NCBI GenBank assembly: GCA_043807585.1
Contig: JAZDFV010000015.1
Location: forward strand, 16,071-80,070
Length of the DNA: 64,000 nucleotides
DNA from: Candidatus Jorgensenbacteria bacterium
GTDB lineage: Bacteria; Patescibacteriota; Minisyncoccia; UBA6257; GWB1-50-10
Reading direction: 5' to 3'
The first letter of the stretch is position 1. The number at the start of each line of letters is the position of its first letter. The notes below the pieces were generated by a model that saw nothing but the letters and a program-made list of their open reading frames with translations, was not told the origin of the DNA and did no database searches. The translations under genes and the position numbers were made by a program. This document shows positions 7,422 to 23,157 of this stretch, piece by piece.

Positions 7422-7461
7422 GGTGCTATGACGCGTCATAGCACTATGCTATAGCATAGTA
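7422..7461. repeat. two abutting perfect palindromes (gtgctatgacgcgtcatagcac; actatgctatagcatagt) of the GGTRCTA-N10-TAGYACC family, upstream of eno
   Basis: Read directly; related copies at 9418, 15442, 16165, 23022, 23141. Confidence 0.55.
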
Positions 7462-7619
7462 CCCTCTCCCAGCTCGGAGACGAAATCGGGGAAGTTCTGA
7501 CACGTTTTAGCTTCGGTGTTCATTGATTGTGGTAAAACAACGGTCAATTAAATATGATTCTTCTTGCTCCATCCAAGGGTGCTATAATTAATTATAGCAC
7601 CCTCTACTACAGTTCCAGA

Positions 7620-9395
7620 TCACACCACCTCTGCATTGTAGCAGGATTCGCAATAGATTATCTCTTTGCGGTCCGGCGCGTAGGAGGTCTCGAACTCATT
7701 AGGACATTTCTCTCCCCCGTGGGTGTGGTGGACGGTGTTCTTATAGATACCGTTCTCACTCCCCTTCCCCGCACACTGACACTTTCTTTTCCATAGCTTC
7801 AAGGGGTTCCGCTGCTTCAAACGCTCATAGTGACGACAGTTGGGGCAGAGGCGGGGTATGGGCAGATTCATTCTCCGATAGAAGGCGAGTTCCTCCCCTA
7901 TGACCTTGAAGGCGGTGGTGCACTGGTGGGTGCATTTCCCCTCGTGAGCGCAGCCTATCGTTTCATTCAATACCTCGTCGGTGACATCTTTGATGTAGTC
8001 GGGAAGATCCTCGGGTCTCTTGGTGATAGTGTATTGTTTAAGGTCGGGGTTTTTCCACCTGTAGCCCTTCGACTTCGCTTCCGCTTCGCTCAGGGGGAAG
8101 TACTCCTGGGCGATTGTCTCGTTGTACGCGAAGGGAGACAATTCTGGAGGGAAGAACTCGCCGTACCGGTAGACCCTCCCCTGCTTATCTACGTAGGGCA
8201 TGGTGTTCATGTGCTCAATGATGCGAGGTACCAGCTCCTCATACTCTTCCTTGGTGTATTGCTTGTTCAAGATGCAGTACTGCTTGTTTTTCATCCCAAC
8301 ACACCCAAAAAGGTTATGAGAACTTGAGCACCAGTCAGTGTACTGGGACCCGCGGAGAACATCAGCGCTGGCAAAAAATTTTACATTCGAAGTTCCTTTG
8401 CCCCCGACAATCCCATCATACACGAGCTCACTTCCCTCACCACAACTGAAAACCCTGTGTACGTCTTTTGCCTTAAGGACGCGGACAACCCAAGAGGCGT
8501 TTTCCACATCATAGGCATCGAAAGAATTCCTCACGTTCTTGCAATTCAAAATGTAGTTCCCGGTGCAATTGACCGCTTTCGAAATGTCGGCGTATTTATG
8601 AATACTGCACGCCTCAAGATCCTTGAAGTCATTCAGAAGTTTGGCTCTCCCCCGAGCGCTCCCAAGATTGATCCCCGAAATCGATTTCTCATACGCGCCC
8701 TTCGAGAGCTGTTCGTTGCAAAAAACATACTGTTTGTTCCGAAGGTTTGCCGACATAAAACAATTCTGGCAATTCACACAGTCATATAGGTAGTACGAAT
8801 CCGTACAGTCACGGCTGTTCACGATGAACTGGCTCTTATAACAATGGTCGGAATTGAACCCCTCGTATAACAACTCGGAGTTCTTGGACATCAAGGAATC
8901 GAGGACATCCTTAGACCAATCAACGATATTCGAATAGTAAATGCTCTCTCCTGTAGAAATCCCATACGCAAGGTAGGCGTTCTTCGTGTTCCGCGTGTAG
9001 TTCGCGAATTCGCAGTTAACACTCGTTCCATACTGCAGTATCGCGACGCGGGGGGTTGTCTTCAAAACGGACAGGAACTGAGTAAAGAATGGTTTTGCGA
9101 AATCATACGGAACCCCATATTTTGTTGGGTCCCATTTGTCAGATATGAAACAGCTATGGCAATACACAGGGAACTGGGCCCCCACCGGGTACATGGAAAT
9201 TGTCTTCGTTTTACAAAGCTCACACTGCCCCCAATACAACGCTTTCTCATTCCGCCAGAGCATTTTCGCTGCAAAACCGCACTCCGGGCACCACGTGGGC
9301 AGCGGGACTTTTATCTTCTCGTAGAACGCGAAGTCATCCGGCTCTATCGTGAAATTCTGCTGGCAACTCTGGCAATTTCTTGATTCGTGGTGCAT
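7620..9395 (-). CDS. cysteine-rich hypothetical protein with N- and C-terminal CxxC zinc-ribbon-like modules and internal Cys/Asn-rich repeats; atypically low GC
   Basis: 591-aa ORF; FYEKIKVPLPTWCPECG at N-term and FYRRMNLPIPRLCPNCRH at C-term; local GC about 47% versus about 60% flanks. Confidence 0.5.
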   Translation of the reverse strand: MHHESRNCQSCQQNFTIEPDDFAFYEKIKVPLPTWCPECGFAAKMLWRNEKALYWGQCELCKTKTISMYPVGAQFPVYCHSCFISDKWDPTKYGVPYDFAKPFFTQFLSVLKTTPRVAILQYGTSVNCEFANYTRNTKNAYLAYGISTGESIYYSNIVDWSKDVLDSLMSKNSELLYEGFNSDHCYKSQFIVNSRDCTDSYYLYDCVNCQNCFMSANLRNKQYVFCNEQLSKGAYEKSISGINLGSARGRAKLLNDFKDLEACSIHKYADISKAVNCTGNYILNCKNVRNSFDAYDVENASWVVRVLKAKDVHRVFSCGEGSELVYDGIVGGKGTSNVKFFASADVLRGSQYTDWCSSSHNLFGCVGMKNKQYCILNKQYTKEEYEELVPRIIEHMNTMPYVDKQGRVYRYGEFFPPELSPFAYNETIAQEYFPLSEAEAKSKGYRWKNPDLKQYTITKRPEDLPDYIKDVTDEVLNETIGCAHEGKCTHQCTTAFKVIGEELAFYRRMNLPIPRLCPNCRHYERLKQRNPLKLWKRKCQCAGKGSENGIYKNTVHHTHGGEKCPNEFETSYAPDRKEIIYCESCYNAEVV

Positions 9396-9417
9396 GGATT
9401 CCTTTGCTCTAGTGGAG

Positions 9418-9442
9418 GGTACTACACGATCGTGTAGTACCT
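9418..9442. repeat. perfect palindrome gggtactacacgatcgtgtagtacc (GGTRCTA-N10-TAGYACC family), upstream of the Cys-rich gene
   Basis: Read directly. Confidence 0.55.
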
Positions 9443-9457
9443 CACCCCAGAGGCCTG

Positions 9458-10465
9458 CTACTGAGCCGTGAGATTTATCAGTTTCCCCGCGATGAATCCT
9501 TTTATATTTTCTACTGTGGTATTGAAGATGCGCTCCAGCGCCTCCTGGGTATTGAACGCGTTGTGCGGCGTGATGAGGACATTCGGCATTTTCATCAGCA
9601 TGTGGTTTTCCAGCATCGTGCGCAGTTCCTCCGCGTGTGCGTTAACGTTCCGGAAGAACTGCATCTCGTCCTTCGTCGGGCCTTCTTCTTCCAGCACGTC
9701 CACGCCAAGACCAGCCAGTGTTCCGTCCGCGAGCGCCGCAATCAAGGCATCGGTTTCCACGATGCCACCGCGCGCGGTGTTCACGAGGTACGCACCTTTC
9801 TTTATAAGCTTCATGTTATCGCGGTTCAAGAGGTGATGTGTTTCTTTGGTATAGGGCGTGTGGATAGAAATAATGTCGGAGGTCTTCAGAAGTTCTTCCA
9901 AGGGCAGGTACTGATAATTCATTTCTTTTGCATATGCCTCGTTGGGAAACGGGTCGTAAGCGACGACGTTCATTCCGAAACCTTTTGCGATCTTCACCAT
10001 TTCTTTCCCGATGCGGCCTGTGCCGATGATGCCGATGGTTTTCCATTTGAGGTCCATCCCGCGGAGGTCGTGGAGCGAGAACGATTCGAGTTCCTTCACC
10101 TGATCGATAGCGCGGTACATCTTGCGCGTGAGGTTCAGGATGAGGCCGAAGGCGAACTCCGCCACGGTATTGTCGCCATAGCCGGGCACGTAGGCCACCG
10201 CGATGCCGCGTTTTGTGCACTCCGCGAGGTCAATGTGGTCAAAACCGGTTGAGCGGGTCGTGATGAACTTGAGTTTCGGGAATTGGGCGAGGACCGCTGG
10301 CGTGAAGCGCGAGTTCACGAAGACGGAGATAACTTCCGCGCCGTTCATTTCGGGAAGCGTCAATTCGTCTATCTTGTTTTCATTGAACGATAATTCCGCA
10401 TCGGGAAACGCCGCCCGCGCGAGCGGTTCCTCCCACCCTTCCACCTCAAAAAAGGCAATGCGCAT
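9458..10465 (-). CDS. ldhA: D-isomer-specific 2-hydroxyacid dehydrogenase (D-lactate dehydrogenase-like)
   Basis: GIIGTGRIGKEMVKIAKGFGMNV NAD-binding motif and catalytic RGG/E/H arrangement of the D-2-HADH family; likely true start is MRIAFF (ATG at 10465) with TATAAT 7 nt upstream (leaderless). Confidence 0.8.
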   Translation of the reverse strand: MRIAFFEVEGWEEPLARAAFPDAELSFNENKIDELTLPEMNGAEVISVFVNSRFTPAVLAQFPKLKFITTRSTGFDHIDLAECTKRGIAVAYVPGYGDNTVAEFAFGLILNLTRKMYRAIDQVKELESFSLHDLRGMDLKWKTIGIIGTGRIGKEMVKIAKGFGMNVVAYDPFPNEAYAKEMNYQYLPLEELLKTSDIISIHTPYTKETHHLLNRDNMKLIKKGAYLVNTARGGIVETDALIAALADGTLAGLGVDVLEEEGPTKDEMQFFRNVNAHAEELRTMLENHMLMKMPNVLITPHNAFNTQEALERIFNTTVENIKGFIAGKLINLTAQ

Positions 10466-10496
10466 GTATCTATTATAGTACGTGTCGCCGCGAAAC

Positions 10497-10522
10497 AAAA
10501 ACCCCGCGCGGGGCGGGGCTTG
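10497..10522 (-). terminator. rho-independent terminator (ccccgcgcgggg stem then T-run on the minus strand) after the DUF559 gene
   Basis: aaaaaccccgcgcggggcggggctt read on the minus strand gives a GC hairpin followed by tttttgttt. Confidence 0.5.
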
Positions 10523-10558
10523 AAATTACATTTCCTCGCCAGTCATGCGACTATTCTC

Positions 10559-11317
10559 TTATTCGTGCGAATTAGCCGAGGGGAAGATAACGGCCCCGCC
10601 GCGGGAGCGAATCGCGCGCCGCACCGTCGCCATACAACTTTCAAAATCTGCTGTGAGTGCCTTCTCCGTAAGGCGCACCACTACCCATCCACGCTGCTGC
10701 AAGAAAAGATCTTTGGCACGGTCGCGCCTGCGTGTGTGCGCCCCGGCGTGCGCTTTCGTGTTATCGCATTCTACCGCAATGAATCCTCGCCGGCACGATA
10801 TCGCAAAATCAAGGCAGTACCGTTTCCCGCCGGAAATCCGGTATTGCGGAATCGCGGGGATGCCACACCGCGTGAGCGCCTGCGCCACTATCTCTTCTGT
10901 TGGCACCACTCGGTAGAGTTCGAGAATCGTTCTCGCAGTCAACAAACGGTCGAGCGTTGTAAAACCGAACGAAACACGCCTCGGCGGCACGTTCCTGATT
11001 GGCCGCGGGAGTTGTTGGATGCGGCCCACGTGAATTTGTTGATATTGCTTACCCGCGTCAGGATGGGTGGCCTCATCCGGAAGCAGGTCGCGCCGCGTCC
11101 GTACGCGCGAACGAACTGTGCGCGCATAGTAACGGATGCATCGCCCCAGTCGGCCGAAGAGCGCTGGTTGGTAGAACGCGAGATAGTGAAACGCGCGCCG
11201 CGGCGCCTTGGCGACCGGCATACGGTACCAATGCTCACGGAGGAGAATGGCCAAATCGCGCCTGCGCTTCAATATACCGACAAGCACCACCCCATCCTTC
11301 GTGTGTGCGCGCTCCAT
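10559..11317 (-). CDS. DUF559 (endonuclease-like, restriction-endonuclease fold) domain protein
   Basis: C-terminal YCLDFAI...IAVECDNTKAH...DRAKDLFLQQRGWVVVRL resembles the DUF559/Vsr-like fold. Confidence 0.55.
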   Translation of the reverse strand: MERAHTKDGVVLVGILKRRRDLAILLREHWYRMPVAKAPRRAFHYLAFYQPALFGRLGRCIRYYARTVRSRVRTRRDLLPDEATHPDAGKQYQQIHVGRIQQLPRPIRNVPPRRVSFGFTTLDRLLTARTILELYRVVPTEEIVAQALTRCGIPAIPQYRISGGKRYCLDFAISCRRGFIAVECDNTKAHAGAHTRRRDRAKDLFLQQRGWVVVRLTEKALTADFESCMATVRRAIRSRGGAVIFPSANSHE

Positions 11318-11327
11318 GCCTTTCGCC

Positions 11328-12020
11328 TTAGATGTTTAAAATCTGACTTTCAAGATGTTGTAACTTCGCTAGCCCCAACATGAGTTCACCTTTTTCCTCG
11401 GAGTTCAAGAGTGAAAGATATTCCAAAGAGCTCTTCAAAATCTTGAGACATTCTTTGAGTACATAGCTGGTGTATGCGTAGTCCACATCGCCATAAGCAT
11501 CACCGCGCTCCATCTCCCAACGGTTCGTGAGCTGCCGATAGGTCTTGGAGGTTAAGGTATTCCTATACCACGCCACATCGGCCGCCGCTTCCGTTTCCAA
11601 CCACAGGCTCCCTGATGTATCTGCGGCCTCCAGCACCGATTCCACGTTCTCACGCCATTGTGAAACTTTTCTATACAGCGGAAATTGTTCCGGCTCGGGC
11701 GGCACTGGGATATTGTCAATATTGGTAATATCAATCCCCATACGCTCAGCATCTTGCCTCACTATTGCTAAGGCTTCCCCGAAAGAGGCGCCAACATCTT
11801 CAAATACGCTCTTCATGTCATCGGGGTCTTCCCCGCAATCGATATGCGCGCTCCGATCGCGCATGATGTGTCCGCAGAGCGGGCAATCTTTTTGGTTACA
11901 CGGGATGCGACGCCAGGAACATTCCATCCACTTCGGCATCTCGAACTTACCATCCTTGCCTGATTTTATCTCCCCAATGATTGGCATACTGCTGTGTTTT
12001 TTAGTGGTAATAACCTTCAC
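11328..12020 (-). CDS. hypothetical protein with CxxC...CPLCGH zinc-finger-like motif
   Basis: 230-aa ORF, no recognised family. Confidence 0.4.
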   Translation of the reverse strand: MKVITTKKHSSMPIIGEIKSGKDGKFEMPKWMECSWRRIPCNQKDCPLCGHIMRDRSAHIDCGEDPDDMKSVFEDVGASFGEALAIVRQDAERMGIDITNIDNIPVPPEPEQFPLYRKVSQWRENVESVLEAADTSGSLWLETEAAADVAWYRNTLTSKTYRQLTNRWEMERGDAYGDVDYAYTSYVLKECLKILKSSLEYLSLLNSEEKGELMLGLAKLQHLESQILNI

Positions 12021-12076
12021 GCCACCATTCTCTTATTCGTGCGAATAAGAGAATGGTCAGAGCAAAGAAGAAATGG

Positions 12077-12355
12077 TTAAAGAATGGTAATGATGGCTCG
12101 GGCGGCAGGGCGTGCGGTATTCGCGAGCCGATAGAACACCTGCAAATCCCGCTGGTCGCGATCCACAAGGTCAGCCGCGTGGAGCACCGCGAGGTGCCGC
12201 GAGGTCGATTTGAAAGAGAGACGTATGGCACCCGCAATCTTCCCTACCGATGCCTCGCGCTCCTCCTTGAGATACTTCATGATGGCAAGCCGCCGCCGGT
12301 TGGCGAGTGCCTTGAGGGTCCGCTCGAGATCGCGCATAGGTGTTTGGGTTACCAT
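12077..12355 (-). CDS. ArsR/SmtB-family transcriptional regulator
   Basis: 92 aa; winged HTH VGKIAGAIRLSFKSTSRHLAVLHAADLV. Confidence 0.7.
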   Translation of the reverse strand: MVTQTPMRDLERTLKALANRRRLAIMKYLKEEREASVGKIAGAIRLSFKSTSRHLAVLHAADLVDRDQRDLQVFYRLANTARPAARAIITIL

Positions 12356-12383
12356 TATGCCTTATTTTACCATTCGCGCGAAA

Positions 12384-12416
12384 ACATTCCGACATTCTGC
12401 AGAATGTGAGAATGTT
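12384..12416. promoter_or_regulatory. imperfect copy of the 40-bp palindrome (cattctgcagaatgtgagaatg core) between the divergent ArsR genes, abutting the TATAAT of the plus-strand ArsR; candidate operator
   Basis: Palindrome ends 6 nt before tataat (12423-12428); ATG at 12438. Confidence 0.5.
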
Positions 12417-12437
12417 GTGTGGTATAATGAAACTGGT

Positions 12438-12713
12438 ATGAAAACAAAAACGGCAAAGCAACTGGAAAGGCATTTTAAGGGCATGGCCAACCATCGGCGG
12501 ATCGAGATTTTGAGATTGATTGCCGAGAGTGAGGGAATTAGCTTGGAAAACATTGCCAGGAGTCTGGATTGTAATTTCAAGACCATTTCCGAGCATACTA
12601 AAAAATTGGTTCAAGCTGGGCTGGTTGATAAAAAATATCACGGCAGGACAGTCGCTCATACCCTCTCACCCTACGGCAAAATTTTCTGCAAATTTATAAC
12701 CAGCTTCTCGTAA
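12438..12713 (+). CDS. ArsR/SmtB-family transcriptional regulator
   Basis: MKTKTAKQLERHFKGMANHRRIEILRLIAESEGISLENIARSLDCNFKTISEHTKKLVQAGLV; start chosen at internal ATG preceded by tataat. Confidence 0.7.
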   Translation: MKTKTAKQLERHFKGMANHRRIEILRLIAESEGISLENIARSLDCNFKTISEHTKKLVQAGLVDKKYHGRTVAHTLSPYGKIFCKFITSFS

Positions 12714-12742
12714 TCACCTAATCACCTAATCACCTAATCACT
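12711..12742. repeat. tandem 8-mer repeat (taatcacc) x4 starting at the ArsR stop codon
   Basis: taatcacctaatcacctaatcacctaatcac read directly. Confidence 0.6.
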
Positions 12743-12776
12743 GACATTCTCACATTCTGCAGAATGTGAGAATGTC
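12743..12776. repeat. copy of the 40-bp perfect palindrome family (gacattctcacattctgcagaatgtgagaatgtc) between the convergent ArsR and helicase genes
   Basis: Read directly; identical core at 15125, 16239. Confidence 0.7.
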
Positions 12777-12851
12777 GTTTAACGTAGTTGGAGTGCTCAG
12801 GACGAAGGAGGAAATTGGCCTATGTGGTGGAGAGAGGTAACAACACGTGTC

Positions 12852-14429
12852 TCATGCTTCTCGGAGCTTCCGGTCGAGCTTTAGTTTTGCGATGCGCGAA
12901 CGGATGGCGCTCTGTTGACGCCCCAATCGCCCCGCGAGGTTCTTCACGGGCGCGCCGCTCGAAAAAAGTTCTCTCAGTTCTGCATCATCGCTCGTCGGCC
13001 ATGGGCGGTACGCGTTCGGATACCGCTCCCGCATCTCGGCGAACCTGGTATCGCCCGACACTCCGCCGCCGCGTGACCGGGCGAATTCTGCTCGGTGTTC
13101 CGCTCGCCTCTTCATGGTTCCTCCGCACGTAACGATGAATTTCCTTTCCCGTGCGTTTTGGGAAACGGGGGTCTGTAGGGTAAGTTCTGCCGCGGCGCGG
13201 TGAGATAGTTGCTGGAACTCTCCATCACGCGCGAGAATCTCGGGATGCACTTCAAGCGCACGTTCGTTCCACCCGAGAAGGGAAAGCCCGGAAAAAGACC
13301 TCACGCGGGAGAGCGCGACATACCCCTGCCCGTACTCGAACGCGCGAGAGAGATCGACCACCGCGGCGTCGAGCGTCATCCCCTGGCTCTTATGGACGGT
13401 AATGGCCCACGCGAGCTTCAGCGGCACCTGCCGGATGCGCGCGAGCGTTTTCGCGCCGTCCACCATGGACCACTCCATGGGGAGTGCATGAATGAGACGC
13501 CCGGCGTGCGTGCGCACGAGCGGGTAGCCCTCATCGGAAAAATCTTCCACCTCTCCCAGCGTGCCGTTCACAAACCCCTCCTCAAAGTTGTTCTTAGTGA
13601 AGAGCACCTTCGCGCCCAGTTTGAGGAAAAGTCGCTCCGGTGAGAGACAGCCGCGCTTCAATTGCGCTACGAGCGTTTTTGCACCGTGCGATTCCATGGA
13701 GCATTCGCGGACGCTCCCCGGCAATAACGCCAAACGCTCTTCGTTCATTTTATCTACATCAACATTATGTGCGTAGAGATGTGTGTGATTTCCTTCTCGG
13801 ACGGTGTGGACACGCCGCGCGCGAAGCACGGCGGACATTCGCGTTCCACTCCCGCGGCGCACCTCCGAAAGGAGCGCGAGAAACTCCTTTTCATCCTGAC
13901 GGTACTGCTCGGAAAGATAGCACACCGCCACCTCGGCTGTTTCCCAGGACGGCGAGAGAAACGCGAATCGCGCCGGCGGTTCACCTTCCCGTGCAACCGG
14001 GGGTAATTGGAAGAAATCCCCAGCGAGCACCACCTGCAGACCGCCGAACGGCGCTTTATTTTTCCGGAGCACGCGGCACACCACATCAACAGAGGCAAAT
14101 GTTTCGGCATCCAGCATTGAAATCTCATCAATGATGAGCACTTTCGTACGCGCCACCCGCGACGTAAGTCGGTCGTTCCCCGCGAGCAGTTCCGCCTCAT
14201 CTCGGGAGAGCGATTTCCGGATACCGATGCCGGACCACGCATGGATGGTCATACCGCCTATATGCGTCGCCGCGATGCCGGTGGACGCGGTGATCGCCGG
14301 TTCGATACCGTGCGCGCGGAGATAGGCGACGTAGCGGTTCACGGTGTGTGTTTTTCCCGAGCCGGGCTCACCCGTCAAAAACACGTTCACGCCGGACTTC
14401 AACACCATGAGCGCTTGCTCCTGGGTCAT
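12852..14429 (-). CDS. PIF1/RecD-like (AAA_30) ATP-dependent DNA helicase
   Basis: Walker A LTGEPGSGKTH, Walker B VLIIDEISM, helicase motifs plus C-terminal HTH-like tail. Confidence 0.75.
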   Translation of the reverse strand: MTQEQALMVLKSGVNVFLTGEPGSGKTHTVNRYVAYLRAHGIEPAITASTGIAATHIGGMTIHAWSGIGIRKSLSRDEAELLAGNDRLTSRVARTKVLIIDEISMLDAETFASVDVVCRVLRKNKAPFGGLQVVLAGDFFQLPPVAREGEPPARFAFLSPSWETAEVAVCYLSEQYRQDEKEFLALLSEVRRGSGTRMSAVLRARRVHTVREGNHTHLYAHNVDVDKMNEERLALLPGSVRECSMESHGAKTLVAQLKRGCLSPERLFLKLGAKVLFTKNNFEEGFVNGTLGEVEDFSDEGYPLVRTHAGRLIHALPMEWSMVDGAKTLARIRQVPLKLAWAITVHKSQGMTLDAAVVDLSRAFEYGQGYVALSRVRSFSGLSLLGWNERALEVHPEILARDGEFQQLSHRAAAELTLQTPVSQNARERKFIVTCGGTMKRRAEHRAEFARSRGGGVSGDTRFAEMRERYPNAYRPWPTSDDAELRELFSSGAPVKNLAGRLGRQQSAIRSRIAKLKLDRKLREA

Positions 14430-14899
14430 GCGGGTAAATCGTCGTTGATGTGGGTCACCCGCAGCCGCTCAATGCCGTTGGTTTCAAATTCTTTCCAGTA
14501 TTTTTCGAACAGAGGATGGTCTTTCTCGATCCGCTCGGACGCGCTCATCGCCCGAATTTCCTCGTCGGTGTACATTCTGGAACAATCACGGTCCACGAGA
14601 TGGCACGCCAACTCCTCCCAGAAATTTTCCTCGTCGTAGCGATCAATACATTCCTGTATCTCCTCATCGTCCTCGAGTTTCAACGTAGGAACGTGCCGCC
14701 GCATCTCAACGTCGTACTTTACCAAGTCCCCCGCCCCAAACTCCTCGGCGCGGGAGAACATGTAATCCTCGATCTCGTCGAATGCCTCCTTCCGCTTGTC
14801 GTCGGGCGCGTCCGTACGCACCGCGTTCGCAAGCCAGTTGCCCAAGTATACCGTCTTGAGCAGGGCGAGAAACTGGTCTTTAGTAAGTCGAATCTCCAT
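14426..14899 (-). CDS. acidic hypothetical protein translationally coupled (ATGA overlap) to the PIF1-like helicase
   Basis: 157-aa ORF ending 4 nt inside the helicase start. Confidence 0.5.
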   Translation of the reverse strand: MEIRLTKDQFLALLKTVYLGNWLANAVRTDAPDDKRKEAFDEIEDYMFSRAEEFGAGDLVKYDVEMRRHVPTLKLEDDEEIQECIDRYDEENFWEELACHLVDRDCSRMYTDEEIRAMSASERIEKDHPLFEKYWKEFETNGIERLRVTHINDDLPA

Positions 14900-15471: not shown

Positions 15472-15503
15472 GTGATGATGGGAGAATTGAGGAAGAAACC
15501 CGT

Positions 15504-15827: not shown

Positions 15828-15837
15828 ATTCCTAGTA

Positions 15838-16134
15838 TCATTCGCTCGCGGGTGACTTGAGAGAATCGCGTTTTGCTTCTTCCACGTTTTCCTTTAGGGA
15901 GCCAACCTTACGCATGATATCGATCAAGGTTTTTGTTTCTTCCTGGTCTGCATCCGGTGACATTGCCCGGCGCGCTGCCTCTAAATTTTCCGCCAGGCGG
16001 GACATGCTCTCGGCCATCTTTTTGAAGAGCAACTCCTTCGGGATATTTTTCTCTCCGCCGTATTTCACAATCCACCACCAATATAGGAGCCGAACCTTCA
16101 CCATTGGCCAGAAGCTGTAGCGTATAAAATCCAT
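15838..16134 (-). CDS. hypothetical small protein
   Basis: 98-aa ORF. Confidence 0.35.
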   Translation of the reverse strand: MDFIRYSFWPMVKVRLLYWWWIVKYGGEKNIPKELLFKKMAESMSRLAENLEAARRAMSPDADQEETKTLIDIMRKVGSLKENVEEAKRDSLKSPASE

Positions 16135-16164
16135 ATCTCTATTCTATCTCAAAACGCCATGCGG

Positions 16165-16204
16165 GGTACTATAGGCTAATTCGCACGAATTAGCCTATAG
16201 TACC
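16165..16204. repeat. 40-bp palindrome ggtactataggctaattcgcacgaattagcctatagtacc (GGTACTA...TAGTACC outer arms, long spacer)
   Basis: Read directly; followed by a ccattcgcgcgaattagagaatgg module also present at 12367 and 12025. Confidence 0.55.
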
Positions 16205-16238
16205 ATTCGCGCGAATTAGAGAATGGGACTCAAGCAAG

Positions 16239-16274
16239 AACATTCTCACATTCTGCAGAATGTGAGAATGTCGT
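16239..16274. repeat. copy of the 40-bp palindrome family
   Basis: aacattctcacattctgcagaatgtgagaatgtcgtt. Confidence 0.7.
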
Positions 16275-16362
16275 TCTCTATGATCCAGACGGCATCCCTG
16301 GGTTTCACTTCGCTCCGCTTCGGCGGATTAGGATTGTCGGGTCCTTGCTTCCCCATATTCGT
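16264..16362 (-). pseudogene. internally deleted remnant of a duplicated ywbE-like gene (5-prime about 90 nt only)
   Basis: 16275-16362 is near-identical to 15308-15403 (the ywbE 5-prime end); a deletion junction joins it directly to the palindrome. Confidence 0.6.
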
Positions 16363-16399
16363 TTTGTCATTTTAACATTTTCGCCTTACTTCTCGTTGG

Positions 16400-17155
16400 T
16401 CAGTTAGTTTTTTTGTACCAAACATCAATTTTTTGACGTGTTTCTCTTCGATTTGCATTAACAAAAGTCTGTAATTGTGGAAAATATCCTAAAAATTCGT
16501 CGTGTAATTTCTTGCGGCTAGCTGATGTCTCTCTACCACTTTTAATTAAATAACTAGTCCGAACTAACCCAATAATAAGATCGACGAGTTGCAGTTCACA
16601 TGATGCATATAAAGGCGCAAAGAGTACTGAAGAATCTCGAATCTGGATTGTGGGCTTCCCCAAAATAGTATTCTTTTTTCTCAGCATATTATTCAGTACC
16701 TTCGAGAATTCTTCCTGTTGCTCAAAATTAAGCGATTGTCTATCAAAGATAAGTCGAGCAGCAGAAAGACGATTGTGTATTAAGCTTCCATGAAGTATCC
16801 ATGGATAAGACAATAGCAGTGCCGCTAACTTCGCGCGGCTGATGTGATTTTCCCATCTTTCCCACGTGCGAGCGTTCACCACAATTGCTCTAAACAGGGC
16901 ATTCGAATCAACAAAAGCAGAAAGAAACCCACTCATAACTTTAGATTGTTTTTCGGTAATATTTGTAGTGTTGGAAAAATGAAGAGTATTGATACAACTT
17001 TCTTTCATTCTCACTTGCCCAAGTCGCTGGAACAAATCGCAATCTACAGGTAGAAAAATACCACCAACCATAAAATGGCTGGTGCCTAGATACCCGAACT
17101 CAGTTTCGTCCAAAAAAATCCTGCAAAGATGAAATACTGATTCTGAAATTTTCAT
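16400..17155 (-). CDS. DUF3800-like protein (defence-island-associated family), AT-rich
   Basis: N-terminal IFLDETEFGY resembles the DUF3800 IFIDESG start; 251 aa; low GC. Confidence 0.4.
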   Translation of the reverse strand: MKISESVFHLCRIFLDETEFGYLGTSHFMVGGIFLPVDCDLFQRLGQVRMKESCINTLHFSNTTNITEKQSKVMSGFLSAFVDSNALFRAIVVNARTWERWENHISRAKLAALLLSYPWILHGSLIHNRLSAARLIFDRQSLNFEQQEEFSKVLNNMLRKKNTILGKPTIQIRDSSVLFAPLYASCELQLVDLIIGLVRTSYLIKSGRETSASRKKLHDEFLGYFPQLQTFVNANRRETRQKIDVWYKKTN

Positions 17156-17223
17156 TACGAAACAAGCCGGGTTGCCCCGGCTTGGAAGTCAAACGGCTTT
17201 CGAGTCAGGGCGCAATTGGTTCT

Positions 17224-18798
17224 TTATATTCCAAGTTCTTTGTCTCTATTTTTTTCTTCTACCGGCTTCGCTTCCTTGTAGTACCGCAGGGCGCCGAGGG
17301 GCACCCTCGGCTTCTTGTTGTTCAGCAAATCGTCAACGGTGAGGATTTGAATCTTGGGGAATTCAAACTCGTTTCCGAACTTGACCTTGTACGAACCGGC
17401 GCTCGCCGCTTCCTCCAGCATCGGCTTGGTTGGTTTCTCAAGCGTAATGAGCACGCCACCCTCCGCTCGTTCCCGCTCCACGTCACCCTTGAGCGTGGCG
17501 ATATCGTTCCGATGAACCCCGCCGCCTTTCACCTGCACCAGCAAGCGGCCGTATTCCTCGTTCCCATTCTTCAAGTCCTTTACGAACGTAATAACCCCGT
17601 CTATGCCTTTATCGGCGCCGCGCATATGCTCCTTCGTTTTACTTTGAGCCGGCACCGCGTCCACCATATCGAGCACCCAGTATTCGAATTCAAACGGGTC
17701 TTTTTTGAATAGTGCCTGCGCGCTGGCAACATCACGCGGACGACCGTCAATATATATTGCAGGCATCTTTCCTTCAAACTGCTTAGCGAGGCGATGGCGA
17801 ATGAGGTTGATCGCAAGCATCGTGATGTCAATACCGACCCAGTTCCGCTTCAGGCGTTCCGCCACCGACACCGTTGTCCCGCATCCGCAAAATGGGTCAA
17901 GCACCCAATCCATTTCGTTTGAAGATGCCTTAACAATACGTTCAAGGAGTGTTTCTGGTTTTTGAGTGGGATAGCCAAGTCGTTCATTAGGAGAAATATG
18001 CCCTCCTGATGGAATATCAACCCAAAAATCTTCTGGAATCTTACCTCGCTTTAAATATTCCTGACGCACTGTTTCATCCTGTAATTTCCCTTCACTCCCC
18101 CATATTTTTGCCCCAGCACCCTTATCTGTATGTAACTCCTTATAGGGAATCCTCGTTGCTTCAAGATTGCTGTAATAATTATCTGTCTTTGAATATCGCA
18201 AAATTGTGTCATGTTTTTTAGGAAAATCATTCTTTGCACCAGAAGGACCAGTATAGCACCACACAATCTCGTTCCTAAAATTCTGCTTTCCAAAAATCGC
18301 GTCCATCACAATTTTTAAGTAATGGCTTGCGGTCGGGTCACAGTGGAGATAAATACTCCCTGTCGGTTTCAGCACGCGATGTAACTCTAAGAGTCGCACC
18401 GTCATCATGGTGAGATAGGCAAGCACGTCGTTGTGTCCCACGAGTTTCTCCAACGCCTGCATCAGATTGATGATTTTCTCGTTGATGGGCGCTTTTGTAG
18501 TTCGTACTCCCGCGAGTTCCTCGAAGGTTTCCTGCGCATCGCGCGTCCAGTGCCATGAATCTTCAAACGCCTGCACTTGCGAAGGGCTGTCCTGCAACCC
18601 TTCTTTAAAGAGAACATTGTAGTTCCGGTTGGAGTTGAACGGCGGGTCGAGATAAATCAAATCAAAACTCTCGTCGGGAATTTTCTCCCGCAGGATTTCC
18701 AAATTATCGCCGAAGAACAGGGTGCGATTTCTAAGTGGTTCCATTTTTTTCCATCCTACTCCTCTTTTTCTTCCCCGCCAAGCTACGAGAGGGTACAC
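17224..18798 (-). CDS. beta-class N6-adenine/N4-cytosine DNA methyltransferase fused to a C-terminal Mrr-like (PD-(D/E)xK) nuclease domain
   Basis: Motif IV DLIYLDPPFNS precedes motif I LDPFCGCGTT (beta order); C-terminus GADKGIDGVITF...LLVQVKGGG resembles Mrr_cat. Confidence 0.75.
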   Translation of the reverse strand: MYPLVAWRGRKRGVGWKKMEPLRNRTLFFGDNLEILREKIPDESFDLIYLDPPFNSNRNYNVLFKEGLQDSPSQVQAFEDSWHWTRDAQETFEELAGVRTTKAPINEKIINLMQALEKLVGHNDVLAYLTMMTVRLLELHRVLKPTGSIYLHCDPTASHYLKIVMDAIFGKQNFRNEIVWCYTGPSGAKNDFPKKHDTILRYSKTDNYYSNLEATRIPYKELHTDKGAGAKIWGSEGKLQDETVRQEYLKRGKIPEDFWVDIPSGGHISPNERLGYPTQKPETLLERIVKASSNEMDWVLDPFCGCGTTVSVAERLKRNWVGIDITMLAINLIRHRLAKQFEGKMPAIYIDGRPRDVASAQALFKKDPFEFEYWVLDMVDAVPAQSKTKEHMRGADKGIDGVITFVKDLKNGNEEYGRLLVQVKGGGVHRNDIATLKGDVERERAEGGVLITLEKPTKPMLEEAASAGSYKVKFGNEFEFPKIQILTVDDLLNNKKPRVPLGALRYYKEAKPVEEKNRDKELGI

Positions 18799-18844
18799 CT
18801 ACCCCAAAACCGAACCCCGGTAATAGCGGTTAGTAGAGACAAAC

Positions 18845-18897
18845 AAAAACGCCCGCTTGGGCGGGTTTGGATTATCGGGTCCGAATTTACGCATATT
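18845..18897 (-). pseudogene. second short remnant of the ywbE-like 5-prime end
   Basis: gcccgcttgggcgggtttggattatcgggtccgaatttacgcatattcgttttgtcatttta parallels 15345-15420. Confidence 0.45.
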
Positions 18898-19002
18898 CGT
18901 TTTGTCATTTTACACCAAAATGACGACTATTAACCTGTTATTAGAAGCATTGACATAGAGAGTACGTGGCGTTAATATACCGTCGGTTACTTTTGAGAGT
19001 GC

Positions 19003-19221
19003 ATGTGGCCTAGGCCTAAGACGACACTTCGCTTGCGAGGTTCAAACGTCATGGCACATACGAAAGGACTGGGAAAGGAGTACATTTACTGCCAATCGAT
19101 CGACTCACCTCCAGAATGGCAGGACGAAGTAGACTACCTCATTTATGAAGTTCAAAGTCTATTGATAGTAGAGAGGTTCAGCCAAAGATCGGTCGAGACA
19201 GATTTTGTACCTTCTCCCTAA
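19003..19221 (+). CDS. small hypothetical ORF ending at a rho-independent terminator
   Basis: 72-aa ORF; terminator immediately follows. Confidence 0.3.
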   Translation: MWPRPKTTLRLRGSNVMAHTKGLGKEYIYCQSIDSPPEWQDEVDYLIYEVQSLLIVERFSQRSVETDFVPSP

Positions 19222-19250
19222 GCCCAACAAGGATATCCTTGTTGGGCTTT
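19221..19250 (+). terminator. rho-independent terminator agcccaacaaggatatccttgttgggc then ttt
   Basis: 11-bp perfect stem, T-run on the plus strand. Confidence 0.55.
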
Positions 19251-19362
19251 AAATTTTTATGTGGATAACTACGCACAGGTATCCCTTACCAACAAAAAGT
19301 GGTTTTCTTCCCTGCTCGGTGCTTTACTGTCTTCTGCAAGGTAGAGAGGAAGCGGGATTTGG

Positions 19363-19719
19363 TCATTTATTAAAAGCCCATTCAGAAATATTGAGCAGAA
19401 CAATAGCATCCTCCTGTTGATTGGTCCAAATAGGTACTGTTTTATTCCAGTAGAAGAAGTGTGAAGTATTGCCACTCCCATTTACTTGTGTTTTATAAGA
19501 CCCTTTCTTTGTATAAAGAACAATTAAATCACCCTTTTTAATTTCGTGGTCAGTAAACCAAAAAGTAGCACTGGTAGCACTAGAAACTTGCGCCTCCCCT
19601 GTTTTTTTAGATTTGAAAACGGCGTATTCTCCAACGTTATCATCATCCAAAACCTCAAAAATAACCCTTTCTTTCTCTAAATTCCCCGCGTCTTCAATTC
19701 CTTTAATTTGGATTTTCAT
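19363..19719 (-). CDS. hypothetical soluble protein, AT-rich, first gene of a two-gene module
   Basis: 118 aa; stop/start overlap with the upstream gene. Confidence 0.45.
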   Translation of the reverse strand: MKIQIKGIEDAGNLEKERVIFEVLDDDNVGEYAVFKSKKTGEAQVSSATSATFWFTDHEIKKGDLIVLYTKKGSYKTQVNGSGNTSHFFYWNKTVPIWTNQQEDAIVLLNISEWAFNK

Positions 19720-20267
19720 TATGAATTATTTTTCTTAAAAGATTTCAAAAAATCAGGGTTCCACATAGCCAAAACAAAACTCGCTAAACATAAAAGTGCT
19801 ATACCCCAACGATATTGCAATAAATCAGGAGTAAAGAAAAGACCTCCCAATAAACCACCAACGGTGAATAAAAGATTCCTTACTCCAATAGATTCTCCTA
19901 ATCCTAATAATCTCTCCTTCAAAACAGCGGATTCTTCACTCTTTTGATAAAATTTATCCTTAAATGGTTTTAATCCAGCAATTTCACTTTGATAACGCTT
20001 AGTATCACCAAGAAGTGTTCTAGCTACCACTTTTGCTACTTTATTGTTTTCTAAATCTTCTTCGGTAATTTCATCTTTAATGCCAGCGTAGGGCGTTTTT
20101 GCTGACTTAACGCCATCTATTTCTGGCGAACCCTTCGGCTCCTCATCTAGTTTTAGAACTATCTTAGCCATTTTGTCTAAGTATAACACACCTGGTTCAA
20201 TGGTATCTACCAAAGAGTAATCCCGATATTTATAATGAGACAAGGATAGCTTTTCTCTAGAAACCAC
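19719..20267 (-). CDS. hypothetical protein with C-terminal transmembrane helices, AT-rich
   Basis: 182 aa; hydrophobic C-terminus NLLFTVGGLLGGLFF...IALLCLASFVLAMW. Confidence 0.45.
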   Translation of the reverse strand: MVSREKLSLSHYKYRDYSLVDTIEPGVLYLDKMAKIVLKLDEEPKGSPEIDGVKSAKTPYAGIKDEITEEDLENNKVAKVVARTLLGDTKRYQSEIAGLKPFKDKFYQKSEESAVLKERLLGLGESIGVRNLLFTVGGLLGGLFFTPDLLQYRWGIALLCLASFVLAMWNPDFLKSFKKNNS

Positions 20268-20329
20268 AACAACCTCGCCTCGCGGCGGGGCTCATTATAC
20301 AAACGATTTTGACTATTCCGGCAGTTTTT

Positions 20330-22921
20330 CTACTTCTTCGCCAACTGAAGAATGGTTTTGATGACCGTATCCGGATTGAGAGAGATGCTCTCTATCCCCT
20401 TCCTGATGAGGAACGCGGCGAAGTCGGGGTAGTCCGAGGGTGCCTGGCCGCAGATGCCGCTGTATTTTTTTCGCTTGCGGCACTTCGCGATGACCTCCGC
20501 GATCATCTTCTTCACCGCCGGGTTGTTCTCGTTCGCGATGTGGGTGACGATTCCGGAATCGCGGTCGAGGCCCAGGACGAGCTGGGCTAGGTCGTTGGAC
20601 CCGATGGACATACCGTCAAAAATGTCCAGGAACTCATCGGCGAGGAGAATGTTGGAGGGGATTTCGCACATCACATAAACCCGCAACGGGTTTATGTGAC
20701 CCTGAGCCTGTCGAAGGGTTGTTTTCCCTCGCTTCAAACCGAAGCGCGCCATTGCGGCGAGTACCTTTCTTCCCTCCTCCGGCGTGCGGCAGAATGGCAC
20801 CATCGGCACCACGTTCGTGAGGCCGAACTTCTCGCGGACGCGCCGCAGGGCTTTCACCTCCAGGCCGAACGCTTTCTCGAACTTCGGGTCGTAGTAGCGC
20901 GAGGCGCCGCGCCACCCGAGCATGGGGTTCTCCTCCACCGGTTCGTAGAGTTCACCACCCACGAGCTTCCGGTACTCGTTCGTCTTGAAATCGGAGAAGC
21001 GGATGATAACCTCGCGCGGGTAGAACGCCGCGCCTATCTTTGCAATGCCCTCGGCGAGTTCGTCCACGTAGAATTTTGTCTTATCCTTATAGCCCGGCGT
21101 CAGTTCGTCAATTTTCCGAATCAGTTTCTGCAGTTTTGATTTTTCAGTTTTCGTTTTGACTTTTGAGATTTGAGATTTGAGTTTATCGTATTCGATGAGC
21201 GCGTTCGGGTGAACCTTGATGTGCGAGGCGATGATGAACTCCAACCGCCCAAGGCCCACGCCCGCGACGGGCAGGTAGTGGTTTTTGAACGCCTCGTCGG
21301 GCGCGCCGATATTGACCATAATCTTTACCTTCGGCTTCGGGAGCTTGTCCAGGTGGTGCTCTTTTATTTCAAACGCCAGTTTCCCCTGGTACACATGGCC
21401 GGTTTCGCCGCCCGAGCAGTCCACAGTAACCGCCTGCCCCGTTTTCAGCTTCCGCGTGGCGTTTCCCGCGCCCACGATGCAGGGAATCCCGAGCTCGCGC
21501 GAGACGATGGCGGCGTGCGACGTGCGCCCACCCTTGTCTGTCACGATCGCCGCGGCGATCTTCATGATAGGCTCCCAATCGGGGTCGGTGATCTCGGTCA
21601 CGAGCACCTCGCCGGGCTTGAACGAACCAATACCCCTTATGCTCTTTATCACCCGCGCCTTTCCCGCGCCCACTCTCTCCCCCACCGCGATGCCCTCCGT
21701 AAGCACCTTGCCCTGAGGGCTTCGACTGAGCTCAGCCGAATGTCCTTGTCGAAGGGTTTTGCCCCCTGCGCGCCGAAGTGTTTTATCTTTGAGCCGGTAC
21801 TCGCGGTAAACCTTCTTACTTTCCATTGCGTGGACCGTTTCGGGGCGCGCCTGCACGATGAAGAGTTCGCCTGTTTTGCCGTCCTTCGCCCACTCGATAT
21901 CCATCCCGTTAGAGGCAGCCCGCCCCAGGGCCCCTCCGGGGCGCGCAGCGCGGGCGCGGCCTCTAACGGGACCCATCGGCCGCATACGATTCCTCACTTC
22001 TGCAAAGTGTCTCTCTATCTCGACACTCCACCGCGCGAGCGTGAGCACCTCATCCTCCGTGAGGCAGAAGCGGTTCTGGTCACGCGGCGAGACCGCCACC
22101 TTCCGCGTTCCTACGCCCGCGTAGACGAGCTTCACCGTTTTCCTCCCAAGGTTCTGGGCAATGACCGCCTTGAACCCCTGCGCCAGGGTCGGTTTGAAGA
22201 CCACGAACTCATCCGGCAGCACCCTTCCCTGCACCACCATCTCACCCAGACCCCATGAGGCATTTACCACCACCACCTTGTCGAACCCCGTTTCGGTATC
22301 AATGGTGAAGATGACGCCGGAGGCGGAGAGATCGGAGCGCACCATCTTCTGGACACCCACCGAGAGCGCCACATCCGAGTGCGTGAACCCTTGGTCCGCA
22401 CGGTACGAGATGGCGCGGTCCTTGAAAAGCGAGGCGATGCATTTCTTCGTGGCGAGGAGCACTTCATCGGCGCCGGAAACGTTCAGGAACGTTTCGTGCT
22501 GGCCGGCAAATGAAACACCGGGGAGATCCTCCGCGGTCGCCGAAGAGCGCACCGCCGTGTCCAAGTTCTTCCCGTACTTCTTCTCCAGTTTCCGATACGC
22601 CGCCCGTATCTCGCGTTTCAGGTCTGCGGGGAGTTCCGCCTTCACTATGAGTTCGCGTATCGCCTTACCGCGCCGCTGGAGGTCCTTGAGGTTGCGGGTT
22701 TTGAGGCCAGCGAGGAGCGTTTTTATTTCGCGGTCCAGCCCGGTTTCTTTCAGAAAGTAGCGGTAGGCGCCCGCGGTGATGGCGAAGCCGTCAGGCACAC
22801 TGATACCCCGCTTCGTGAGGTTCGAGTACATTTCCCCGATCCCGGCGGTCTTGCCGCCTACCTTAGGGACGTCCTTCAAACGTATGTCTTTGAACCAGAT
22901 GATGAACGGCTTATAGGTCAT
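20330..22921 (-). CDS. ppsA: phosphoenolpyruvate synthase (pyruvate, water dikinase) carrying several in-frame repeat-element insertions
   Basis: MTYKPFIIWF...VGGKTAGIGEM N-terminus, central phospho-His domain, C-terminal MCEIPSN...GSNDLAQ PEP-utilising block; 863 aa against about 790 typical. Confidence 0.85.
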   Translation of the reverse strand: MTYKPFIIWFKDIRLKDVPKVGGKTAGIGEMYSNLTKRGISVPDGFAITAGAYRYFLKETGLDREIKTLLAGLKTRNLKDLQRRGKAIRELIVKAELPADLKREIRAAYRKLEKKYGKNLDTAVRSSATAEDLPGVSFAGQHETFLNVSGADEVLLATKKCIASLFKDRAISYRADQGFTHSDVALSVGVQKMVRSDLSASGVIFTIDTETGFDKVVVVNASWGLGEMVVQGRVLPDEFVVFKPTLAQGFKAVIAQNLGRKTVKLVYAGVGTRKVAVSPRDQNRFCLTEDEVLTLARWSVEIERHFAEVRNRMRPMGPVRGRARAARPGGALGRAASNGMDIEWAKDGKTGELFIVQARPETVHAMESKKVYREYRLKDKTLRRAGGKTLRQGHSAELSRSPQGKVLTEGIAVGERVGAGKARVIKSIRGIGSFKPGEVLVTEITDPDWEPIMKIAAAIVTDKGGRTSHAAIVSRELGIPCIVGAGNATRKLKTGQAVTVDCSGGETGHVYQGKLAFEIKEHHLDKLPKPKVKIMVNIGAPDEAFKNHYLPVAGVGLGRLEFIIASHIKVHPNALIEYDKLKSQISKVKTKTEKSKLQKLIRKIDELTPGYKDKTKFYVDELAEGIAKIGAAFYPREVIIRFSDFKTNEYRKLVGGELYEPVEENPMLGWRGASRYYDPKFEKAFGLEVKALRRVREKFGLTNVVPMVPFCRTPEEGRKVLAAMARFGLKRGKTTLRQAQGHINPLRVYVMCEIPSNILLADEFLDIFDGMSIGSNDLAQLVLGLDRDSGIVTHIANENNPAVKKMIAEVIAKCRKRKKYSGICGQAPSDYPDFAAFLIRKGIESISLNPDTVIKTILQLAKK
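20672..20735. mobile_element. hairpin (cacataaacccgcaacgggtttatgtg) plus cctgagcctgtcgaaggg element inserted in-frame in ppsA (encodes KTTLRQAQGHINP)
   Basis: Same cctgagcctgtcgaagg module with an adjacent hairpin at 47986-48030 (in ychF). Confidence 0.55.
21131..21183. repeat. gagatttg-type tandem repeat inside ppsA (encodes SQISKVKTKTEKSKLQKL); related copy intergenic at 50710-50750
   Basis: ttttgacttttgagatttgagatttgag. Confidence 0.5.
21707..21765. mobile_element. short CTGAGC-family element (ggcttcgactgagctcagccgaatgtccttgtcgaaggg) in-frame in ppsA
   Basis: Same termini as the longer copies at 55617, 60158 and 50010 (reverse orientation). Confidence 0.6.
21901..21976. mobile_element. 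cccgttagag TIR element (short form) inserted in-frame in ppsA (encodes MRPMGPVRGRARAARPGGALGRAASNG)
   Basis: catcccgttagaggc ... gcctctaacgggac inverted termini as in the copies at 44842, 45946, 48936. Confidence 0.6.
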
Positions 22922-23021
22922 ACTAGGCTACCTCCGTATTGTAACACGTCTCACAATACGATTTCTTTTTGTTCTGTACCATAGTTCAAAAACTAATCTC
23001 TTTGGTTACGATGCCGCAGTA

Positions 23022-23047
23022 CGGTGCCGTGACGCGTCACAGCACCG
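23022..23047. repeat. near-perfect palindrome cggtgccgtgacgcgtcacagcaccg upstream of ppsA (shares the tgacgcgtca core with the eno site)
   Basis: Read directly. Confidence 0.5.
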
Positions 23048-23124
23048 CATCTAGACCACTTTTGCATCGTAATTCGACACTGTCTGTTTTCTCGATTCAT
23101 ATTTTCTAGATTTAATTTCGGCTA

Positions 23125-23157
23125 CTATCCCATGGGATAGTACTATGCTATAGCATA
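23125..23157. repeat. palindromes ctatcccatgggatag and tactatgctatagcata upstream of ppsA (second shares a 16-mer with the eno upstream region)
   Basis: actatgctatagcata present at 7443 and 23142. Confidence 0.55.

Follow-up and report, generated by a model that had tools for sequence, protein, structure and literature searches.

Clustered, Perfectly Symmetric Intergenic Palindromes with a Patchy Distribution in Candidatus Jorgensenbacteria

Background

Repetitive extragenic palindromes (REPs) and bacterial interspersed mosaic elements (BIMEs) are short palindromes of 20–50 nt that lie in extragenic DNA in multiple copies and several subtypes per genome, form mosaics with other short motifs, are patchily distributed between related genomes and can fold in transcripts; immediately 5' to its palindrome, a REP also has a conserved tetranucleotide, in most cases GTAG (PMC8266576). 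The subject of this work is a family of palindromes, here called T units, with the arms GGTRCTA and TAGYACC around a palindromic core, found in a 64-kb stretch of DNA (the window) from a metagenome-assembled genome of Candidatus Jorgensenbacteria; T units are like REP/BIME sequences in all of these features except the tetranucleotide, being stem-forming palindromes of 24–40 nt that occur in mosaic clusters with other short motifs. Typical REPs have loops or bulges, whereas T units have no loop or bulge at all, and in the T family it is the outer arm that is conserved while the core varies between subtypes. REP units are also dispersed in their genomes; the nine T units of the window lie within 15.9 kb.

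Other small repeats and inverted-repeat signals offer further comparisons. Correia (Neisseria CREE), RUP, BOX and ERIC are small repeats resembling miniature inverted-repeat transposable elements (MITEs); like T units, Correia and other MITE-like repeats lie between genes, can have ends that resemble promoters and are present in some strains but not in others, and they are transcribed along with neighbouring genes and form hairpins, as T units probably do. Their length is 100–150 bp or more, however, their terminal inverted repeats enclose a body that is not palindromic, and they come with target-site duplications, whereas the whole T unit is a perfect palindrome of 24–40 bp with no visible duplication. 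The CIRCE/HrcA operator, TTAGCACTC-N9-GAGTGCTAA, which functions on DNA, as an operator, and also on RNA, is like T units in being an inverted repeat some 27 bp long that contains the hexamers GTGCTA and TAGCAC; in T units, however, the arms are everted, the spacer is 10 instead of 9 and is itself palindromic, and no chaperone gene lies beside them. Identity with CIRCE was rejected owing to this everted arm order.

Jorgensenbacteria are tiny uncultured groundwater bacteria, and the genomes of the Candidate Phyla Radiation (CPR), or Patescibacteria, are tiny and compact. Pfam scans of the window show bacterial genes with the usual CPR/Patescibacteria markers, and intergenic DNA makes up about 11% of its length; its PEP synthase has 100% identity to a protein of a Candidatus Jorgensenbacteria metagenome-assembled genome. 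A full-text literature search returned no prior description of interspersed palindromic repeats in CPR/Patescibacteria. The closer relatives of the window were found through protein homologs (PpsA, Eno, TypA), and their loci are labelled L117, L120, L121 and so on, with L118, L121 and L125 all belonging to GCA_043808525.1 (42 kb); scans of genome and metagenome contig collections yielded distant relatives only (PpsA ≤64%, Eno ≤56%), and the T family was not found in them.

The T Family in the Window

The T family is real, strictly intergenic, clustered in the window and patchy among close relatives. The pattern GGTRCTA-N10-TAGYACC has three exact matches (7578, 9418 and 15445) versus none in 100 shuffles, and 15 matches versus 3.1 expected when up to three mismatches are allowed, which adds the units at 7422-7445, 7440-7463, 23023-23046, 23121-23144 and 23139-23162; the 40-nt palindrome at 16165-16204 has the same ends as the other units. 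The nine T units thus defined by their arms and a palindromic core (Table 1) are all intergenic, occupy 5 of the 45 intergenic gaps and lie within 15.9 kb of the window (P ~0.01 for clustering). The half-site GGTRCTA occurs 16 times versus 5.5 expected, and since ten of these occurrences are inside palindromes and the other six correspond to chance level, the unit is the palindrome and not the solo half-site. The outer arm GGTRCTA(YR) is common to the subtypes, while the palindromic core of 6–10 bp is variable, nine or more different cores being present. The T family belongs to a wider palindrome pattern: if an arm length of 10 or more and a loop of no more than 4 are required, the window has 21 perfect palindromes, nearly all of them intergenic, versus about 0.45 in simulated sequence.

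A preliminary description of this DNA had listed seven palindromes with shared half-sites, which are all found again, together with two that it had overlooked (7576-7603 and 23121-23144). It had also noticed cores common to the sites upstream of the genes for enolase (eno) and phosphoenolpyruvate (PEP) synthase (ppsA); in fact, the cores TGACGCGTCA and TGCTATAGCA occur exactly twice each, once upstream of either gene, and an 18-mer is 100% identical between 7445-7462 and 23140-23157. The sites were further called promoter-proximal, and they do lie upstream of genes, at 22–38 nt from the next start codon in six cases and at about 95–100 nt in three; the label is nevertheless not discriminating because the genes flanking T units are all on the minus strand (hereafter the sense strand for T units), so that each unit follows the stop of one gene, several of them by 7–32 nt, and precedes the start of the next. 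The description of the family as conserved ends with compensatory, variable centres agrees with an alignment of 16 T-family members from four genomes, in which 95.8% of the cells are paired, 10 of the 12 pairs change on both sides and none of 500 shuffles reaches the observed score.

The same alignment shows complementarity at the central positions 11–14 in all 16 members, and at the central dinucleotide in the majority. T units fold into stable hairpins (−12 to −28 kcal/mol). Relative to T3, its copy T3' carries a compensated change of a single pair, from A-T to G-C, as well as one U·G wobble on the sense strand. Mismatches in the palindromes are mostly G·U-compatible on this strand, by 5 to 1 in T units and by about 16 to 6 across the intergenic palindromes, a bias suggestive of folding of T units on one strand; the sense strand at T units is probably the lagging-strand template.

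Distribution among Relatives

T units occur in identical or nearly identical form at non-orthologous intergenic sites in three other assemblies, all from a narrow Jorgensenbacteria subclade, with six copies in 15.6 kb of L117 and six in 21.8 kb of L122 (Table 1); in the latter, several units lie in a repeat-rich spacer of 830 nt between convergent genes, with no convincing open reading frame (ORF). No T unit is present in L118, L121 and L125, and zero units in the 42 kb of this assembly are unlikely by chance because the density in carriers is about 0.2 per kb. L126 (TypA 77%) and L127 (Eno 68%) also have none, and the family was not found in 116 more distant loci, in viral contigs scanned for T1 and T2, or in phages and plasmids searched by blastn with the T2 module.

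The T2 module, of 56–61 nt, is 95–96% identical to L117:12429-12484 and L117:13356-13416, where it stands ahead of unrelated genes, in genomes whose PpsA proteins are only 81% identical and whose neighbouring intergenic DNA does not align. The mosaic character of the family is evident also from the nested and overlapping units: T6 consists of T arms around P3, a palindrome that is found alone in L117, L120 and L121; T4 overlaps T3 and T4' overlaps T7; the P3+T2 pair of L120 is the same as that at L117:15538-15590; and the short modules CCATTCTCTAATTCGCGCG and GGCGTTTTGAGGTAGAAT recur around T units.

The orthologous regions upstream of eno and ppsA do not keep these sites. Upstream of eno there are T1, T4 and T3 in the window, P3 and T2 in L120, and nothing in L121 (gap of 167 nt) or L127 (gap of 14 nt); upstream of ppsA, L117 has an unrelated palindrome and L118 none, with no T unit in either. 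T3, T4, T5 and T7 are private to the genome of the window, and the upstream regions of its eno and ppsA, once aligned, have nothing in common apart from the palindromes. The coordinated control of the PEP node that had been proposed from the eno/ppsA pairing, for which retention at orthologous positions was the expected sign, did not hold up: given these differences between orthologous regions, a conserved PEP-node regulon is unsupported, and the comparison of genomes does not support T units as a conserved regulatory signal of the eno/ppsA node.

Two other palindromes behave differently. P4 (ACCATTCTCTTATTCGTGCGAATAAGAGAATGGT, 34 nt), located just downstream of the ArsR-like helix-turn-helix (HTH) gene, is identical and syntenic at 12024-12057 of the window and at L121:5325-5358 (enolase 71% identical) and is a promising candidate for a genuinely conserved operator or RNA element. 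The palindrome TAT(A/G/C)TCC(T/C)ATTG(A/G)ACGGCCGTCCAATGGGA(T/C/G)ATA is found at 26468-26501 of the window, L117:69-102 and L122:15007-15040, upstream of the same 176-aa gene in the window and L117, and its symmetry is kept through three different compensated pairs in the three genomes. Since these two stay in place and the T family does not, the latter is unlike a conserved PEP-node regulatory site.

Interpretation of the T Family

The explanation that fits best, held tentatively and with a little less than even confidence, is that T units are a lineage-specific REP/BIME-like family of perfectly dyad-symmetric interspersed units in a narrow Jorgensenbacteria subclade. This had been the fallback of the preliminary description, and it is favoured by the non-orthologous copies, the mosaics with other repeats and the lack of T units in close relatives. 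Each subtype, present in several copies, would move or persist as a unit, spread by a copy-and-paste process whose substrate is the folded or the dyad form. Transcription together with the neighbouring genes of the same strand would then let the inserted units form hairpins of 10–18 bp in the sense RNA (or else in the lagging-strand template), with possible effects on the ends or the stability of mRNA like those of REP and Correia elements. Subtype T1 would probably double as a promoter.

Several observations weigh against a REP/BIME-like origin of this kind. The 5' tetranucleotide GTAG was not found at T units, whose 5' flanks (agag, gtga, ccag, gaat, atgc, tgaa, ctac and taag) do no more than lengthen the palindrome (AG...CT), with RTAG inside the stem instead; no gene for a REP-associated tyrosine transposase (RAYT or tnpA-REP, an HUH enzyme; IS200-IS605 type, Y1_Tnp) was seen among the scanned ORFs of the window or the genes on about 120 kb of relatives' contigs. 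Since GTAG and the loop are missing and no RAYT was seen, the T family is not REP in the strict sense, and it may work like REP without being one. No orthologous site that is empty in one genome and filled in another with clean boundaries was found, mobility being deduced from the distribution only, and the alignment of T1...ATTCTTAAGAAT of the window to its counterpart in L122 gave no such relationship either. Moreover, the dyad symmetry runs through the very centre, although a hairpin has no need of a paired centre and positions 11–14 are its loop, and both members of an overlapping pair (T4-T3 or T4'-T7) can fold at once only if their stems are cut short and the conserved arms stay unpaired. 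Hairpin stability alone cannot explain a symmetry that includes four central bases unable to pair in a hairpin, and together with the overlaps this calls in addition for a dyad constraint on duplex DNA, or for an origin as perfect inverted duplications; the earlier preference for a hairpin rather than a protein site is thus half right, the strong covariation being in its favour and the central complementarity and overlap geometry being left unexplained. Finally, the G·U bias of the sense strand could be due to strand-biased mutation, and the tight distances from start codons hint at a link with the 5' end of the downstream gene.

The central symmetry and the 18-bp overlaps are best accounted for by the main rival explanation, in which T units are operators of one or more dimeric DNA-binding proteins that recognise the arms GGTRCTA, and perhaps the cores as well, in double-stranded form. 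A pair of overlapping units would then hold two dimers at the centre-to-centre distance of 18 bp seen at both loci, where hairpins cannot keep the conserved arms paired, and T3/T4 would mark co-regulation of eno and ppsA in this genome, consistent with the restriction of their cores to these two genes. The absence of a spacer contrasts with the canonical looped terminators of the same genome, several units stand 22–38 nt ahead of start codons, and other palindromes of the clade (P4 and that at 26468) act like conserved operators. We nonetheless consider operators unlikely: at least nine distinct cores would require many regulators in a tiny genome, of which only an ArsR-like and a CsoR-like protein are seen in 64 kb; copies are identical at 26 of 26 positions across loci and genomes, unlike typical degenerate operator sets; the sites are not kept at orthologous promoters and are missing from a close relative with the same genes; they occur also between convergent genes; conserved flanks travel with T2 ahead of unrelated genes; and palindromic cores are unnecessary if only the arms are read. 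Operators apart, the family might be a previously undescribed minimal mobile or recombinogenic DNA element of CPR, whose conserved 9-bp arms would be bound by a dedicated enzyme other than RAYT and whose symmetric 6-bp centres would define compatibility groups, shuffling or seeding gene modules and promoters, an idea to which we give a small probability. The related proposal that T units are core sites of a tyrosine-type site-specific recombinase, with two 9-bp arms (GGTRCTAYR) and a 6-bp crossover varying by compatibility group, marking the boundaries of exchangeable gene modules, is the least probable of all. The architecture would fit, as dif, lox and attC sites likewise have inverted arms, a short variable centre and several 'heterospecific' variants, and T1 resembles a symmetrised Escherichia coli dif arm (GGTGCGCATAA); each core type occurs at least twice per genome, and the clustered units separate small accessory genes (12–16.4 kb in the window and 11.3–15.6 kb in L117). 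However, natural crossover regions are usually asymmetric and the centres of T units are symmetric, the features of integron attC sites (R''/R' cores RYYYAAC/GTTRRRY and extrahelical bases) are not present, and no recombinase or integrase gene was seen in the window and no recombinase gene adjoining T units in relatives. The pairs T3/T4 and T3'/T4' were rejected as att-like ends of a 15.6-kb island because the segment is largely syntenic in L121, a genome without T units, and the insertion of the 591-aa Cys-rich gene between T5 and T1 as a cassette was rejected because in the distant relative L083 the homolog of this gene is the immediate neighbour of eno, which makes this neighbourhood ancestral.

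That the family as a whole consists of nothing but RNA signals, or of promoters, is also improbable. If T units were plain structural RNA signals evolved in place and not mobile (terminators lacking the U-tract, RNase processing sites or mRNA-stabilising hairpins), their position shortly after stop codons, the high stability of the hairpins and the G·U bias would be expected; this seems quite doubtful to us, as in-place evolution fails to explain identical 26–28-mers at unrelated loci in different genomes and leaves the central symmetry unaccounted for. No U-tract follows T units, while canonical U-tract terminators exist elsewhere in the window; a terminator scan called no T unit, the flanks having no T runs, and with Rfam 15 the only gathering-level match was a tRNA, a permissive scan of 7000-24800 giving chance hairpin matches on a different palindrome. 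Equally hard to credit for the family is a promoter element in which each arm is an extended −10 (GG-TG-C-TA...) and the palindrome a symmetric, potentially bidirectional promoter. Promoter-like TGnTA(N)AAT elements do lie 6–16 nt upstream of many start codons (e.g., at 12369, 12423, 14977, 22943, 24662, 35973 and 52508), a spacing that points to frequent mRNAs with a very short leader, or none, in this organism. Subtype T1 (GGTGCTATAAT...) conforms to this TGnTAnAAT pattern, each of its arms (TGCTATAAT) being a perfect extended −10 (TGnTATAAT), while T2 (TGCTACAGT) and T4' (TGTTATGCT) match partially, as TGn-TAnnnT; the position upstream of start codons fits, and in L117 T1 stands 34–36 nt ahead of two start codons, in a place equivalent to that of the non-palindromic promoter candidate TGGTATAAT upstream of the MOFRL gene in the window. 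Judged from these matches, T1 can probably act as a promoter besides forming a hairpin. The T family as a whole, on the contrary, is not a promoter family: the key T at −7 is present in only 3 of about 10 subtypes, which is chance level, and the extended −10 (TGn followed by TAnnnT) is missing in T3, T3', T5, T6, T7, T8 and T9; in T4 to T7 the TG is lost, R being A; 15 of 16 members conserve C5, a position left free in promoters; the mirror arm has no role for same-strand gene pairs; and a scan with consensus promoters shows no enrichment.

As a lineage-specific, perfectly symmetric and nested family, T units would show that tiny genomes carry, and tolerate the turnover of, small selfish or structural DNA, would provide markers for strain-level dynamics, and give a view of the promoters and intercistronic signals of an uncultured phylum. 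They also carry a warning for annotation, as palindromes common to the upstream regions of eno and ppsA should not be read as a metabolic regulon.

Neighbouring Genes and Other Repeats

Table 1. T units of the window, genes near them and T-family members in related loci (nt, nucleotides; positions refer to the window unless a locus is named).
Feature	Position	Strand	Sequence	Remarks
T3	7422-7445		GGTGCTA-TGACGCGTCA-TAGCACt	95 nt upstream of the eno start (7326); 6-nt overlap with T4
T4	7440-7463	sense (minus)	GGTACTA-TGCTATAGCA-TAGTGCT	centre 18 bp from that of T3
T1	7576-7603		AGGGTGCTATAATTAATTATAGCACCCT	perfect 28-mer; 16 nt past the stop of the 591-aa Cys-rich gene
T5	9418-9441		GGTACTACACGATCGTGTAGTACC	16 nt past the stop of the 2-hydroxyacid dehydrogenase gene and 22 nt ahead of the ATG of the Cys-rich gene, in a gap of 62 nt
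T2	15442-15471		CAGGGTGCTACAGTCAACTGTAGCACCCTG	38 nt upstream of the DUF2196 gene start
T6	16165-16204		arms GGTACTATA / TATAGTACC	nested 40-mer; T-type arms around the independent palindrome GGCTAATTCGCACGAATTAGCC (P3)
T3'	23022-23047	sense (minus)	CGGTGCTGTGACGCGTCACGGCACCG	100 nt upstream of the ppsA start
T7	23121-23144		GCTACTATCCCATGGGATAGTACT	6-nt overlap with T4', centres 18 bp apart
T4'	23139-23162	sense (minus)	GGTGTTATGCTATAGCATAGTACT	7 nt past the stop of the conserved Cys-motif peptide frame that follows the MOFRL gene
Possible distant relative of the T family	43627-43664		TTACTACAC-N20-GTGTAGTAA	intergenic; 8-mer TACTACAC/GTGTAGTA common with T5
eno (enolase)	6130-7326	minus		Pfam scan
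Cys-rich gene	7620-9395			591-aa zinc-ribbon protein
ArsR-like regulator (HTH) gene	12077-12355	minus
DUF2196 gene (ywbE)	15182-15403
ppsA (PEP synthase)	20330-22921	minus		Pfam scan
MOFRL/DUF4147 glycerate kinase gene	23253-24581			upstream of ppsA; Pfam scan
CsoR-like regulator gene	28955-29224
T1, identical copies	L117: 2127, 11540			L117, Jorgensenbacteria CG23 (PpsA 81%); also a further subtype, T8
T2	L117: 12444, 13370, 15565
T2	L120: 1751			L120 (Eno 76%); between the dehydrogenase gene and eno, with P3 directly before T2
T1, two variants	L122: 7519, 14910			L122 (TypA 86%)
T8 variant (T8v)	L122			one copy
T9	L122		GCTACCGCATGCGGTAGC	three copies

Directly past the stop of the MOFRL gene and in a different frame, the window (23170-23250, minus) and L117 (3657-3737) both encode the Cys-motif peptide NEFxTSYAPxRxEIVYCExCYxxEV, which ends in a stop codon and has homology with the C-terminal end of the 591-aa Cys-rich protein. 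Synonymous changes, among them AGT versus TCC for serine, account for many of the differences between the two genomes; possible readings of the frame are a remnant that is still translated, an ORF that overlaps another, or an extension by frameshifting. The DUF2196 gene has its 5' end and leader duplicated (15321-15418 and 16274-16371, 98 nt, 93% identity), a third copy of 21 nt being located at 18892-18912; ahead of the intact gene there is an upstream ORF of five codons (MTKRT) whose stop overlaps the ATG of the gene (ATGA).

Three islands of low G+C content (40–46% versus about 55–60% elsewhere) are found at 16000-20000, 36000-40000 and 52000-56000; a DNA methylase-Mrr fusion and a DUF3800 gene lie in the first, and the last flanks the only tRNA of the window (Gln, 53227-53298). 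In L122, a tRNA-Gln gene (14360-14431, minus) with a partial direct duplication (L122:14200-14440) adjoins a restriction-modification pair of the MjaI type, as expected for an integration site.

The window holds further palindromes and repeats. P5 (ACATTCTCACATTCTGCAGAATGTGAGAATGT) has three perfect copies and an imperfect one, of 32–40 nt (12383-12416, 12743-12776, 15125-15164 and 16236-16275), all intergenic and within the accessory region of 12–16 kb. The 12-mers ATTC-N4-GAAT number 11 in the window, versus about one in every 20 kb of unrelated loci. A palindrome of 34 nt, TATATCACTTTCAACGGTCGTTGAAAGTGATATA, is found unchanged at two different loci, namely 63844-63877 of the window, after obg, and L117:1943-1976, between a 122-aa gene and the MOFRL gene, and related forms (TTTATCACATTAAAACGCG..CGCGTTTTAATGTGATAAA) are present at L121:13433 and L125:1492. 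The 50-nt repeat TTCGACTGAGCGGTTCGGCCCTGAGCTCACCGCCGAAGGGCTCAGCCGAA has three copies, one of them inverted (50008-50057, 55624-55673 and 60162-60211; also 21721-21740), some of which are inside predicted ORFs, and similar TTCGAC..CTCAG..AAGCCC motifs occur in L120.

Some further sites are close to the 5' ends of genes. The perfect palindrome of 36 nt at 50172-50207 (TCCTCAATTCATTCACGTACGTGAATGAATTGAGGA) ends 10 nt ahead of the start of a methylpurine-DNA glycosylase gene; its 3' arm has the Shine-Dalgarno sequence GAGGA and its 5' arm the complementary TCCTC, so that it could occlude the ribosome-binding site. Inside the predicted 5' part of a P-type ATPase ORF, near the CsoR-like gene, the sequence CGAACAATTGTTCG (28406-28419) matches the LexA box of the Gram-positive type, CGAAC-N4-GTTCG. 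The inverted 15-mers TACGAATATACGAAA and TTTCGTATATTCGTA, 23 nt apart at 5448-5500 and about 100 nt upstream of a class II ribonucleotide reductase gene, could be the site of a regulator, for example of the NrdR type.

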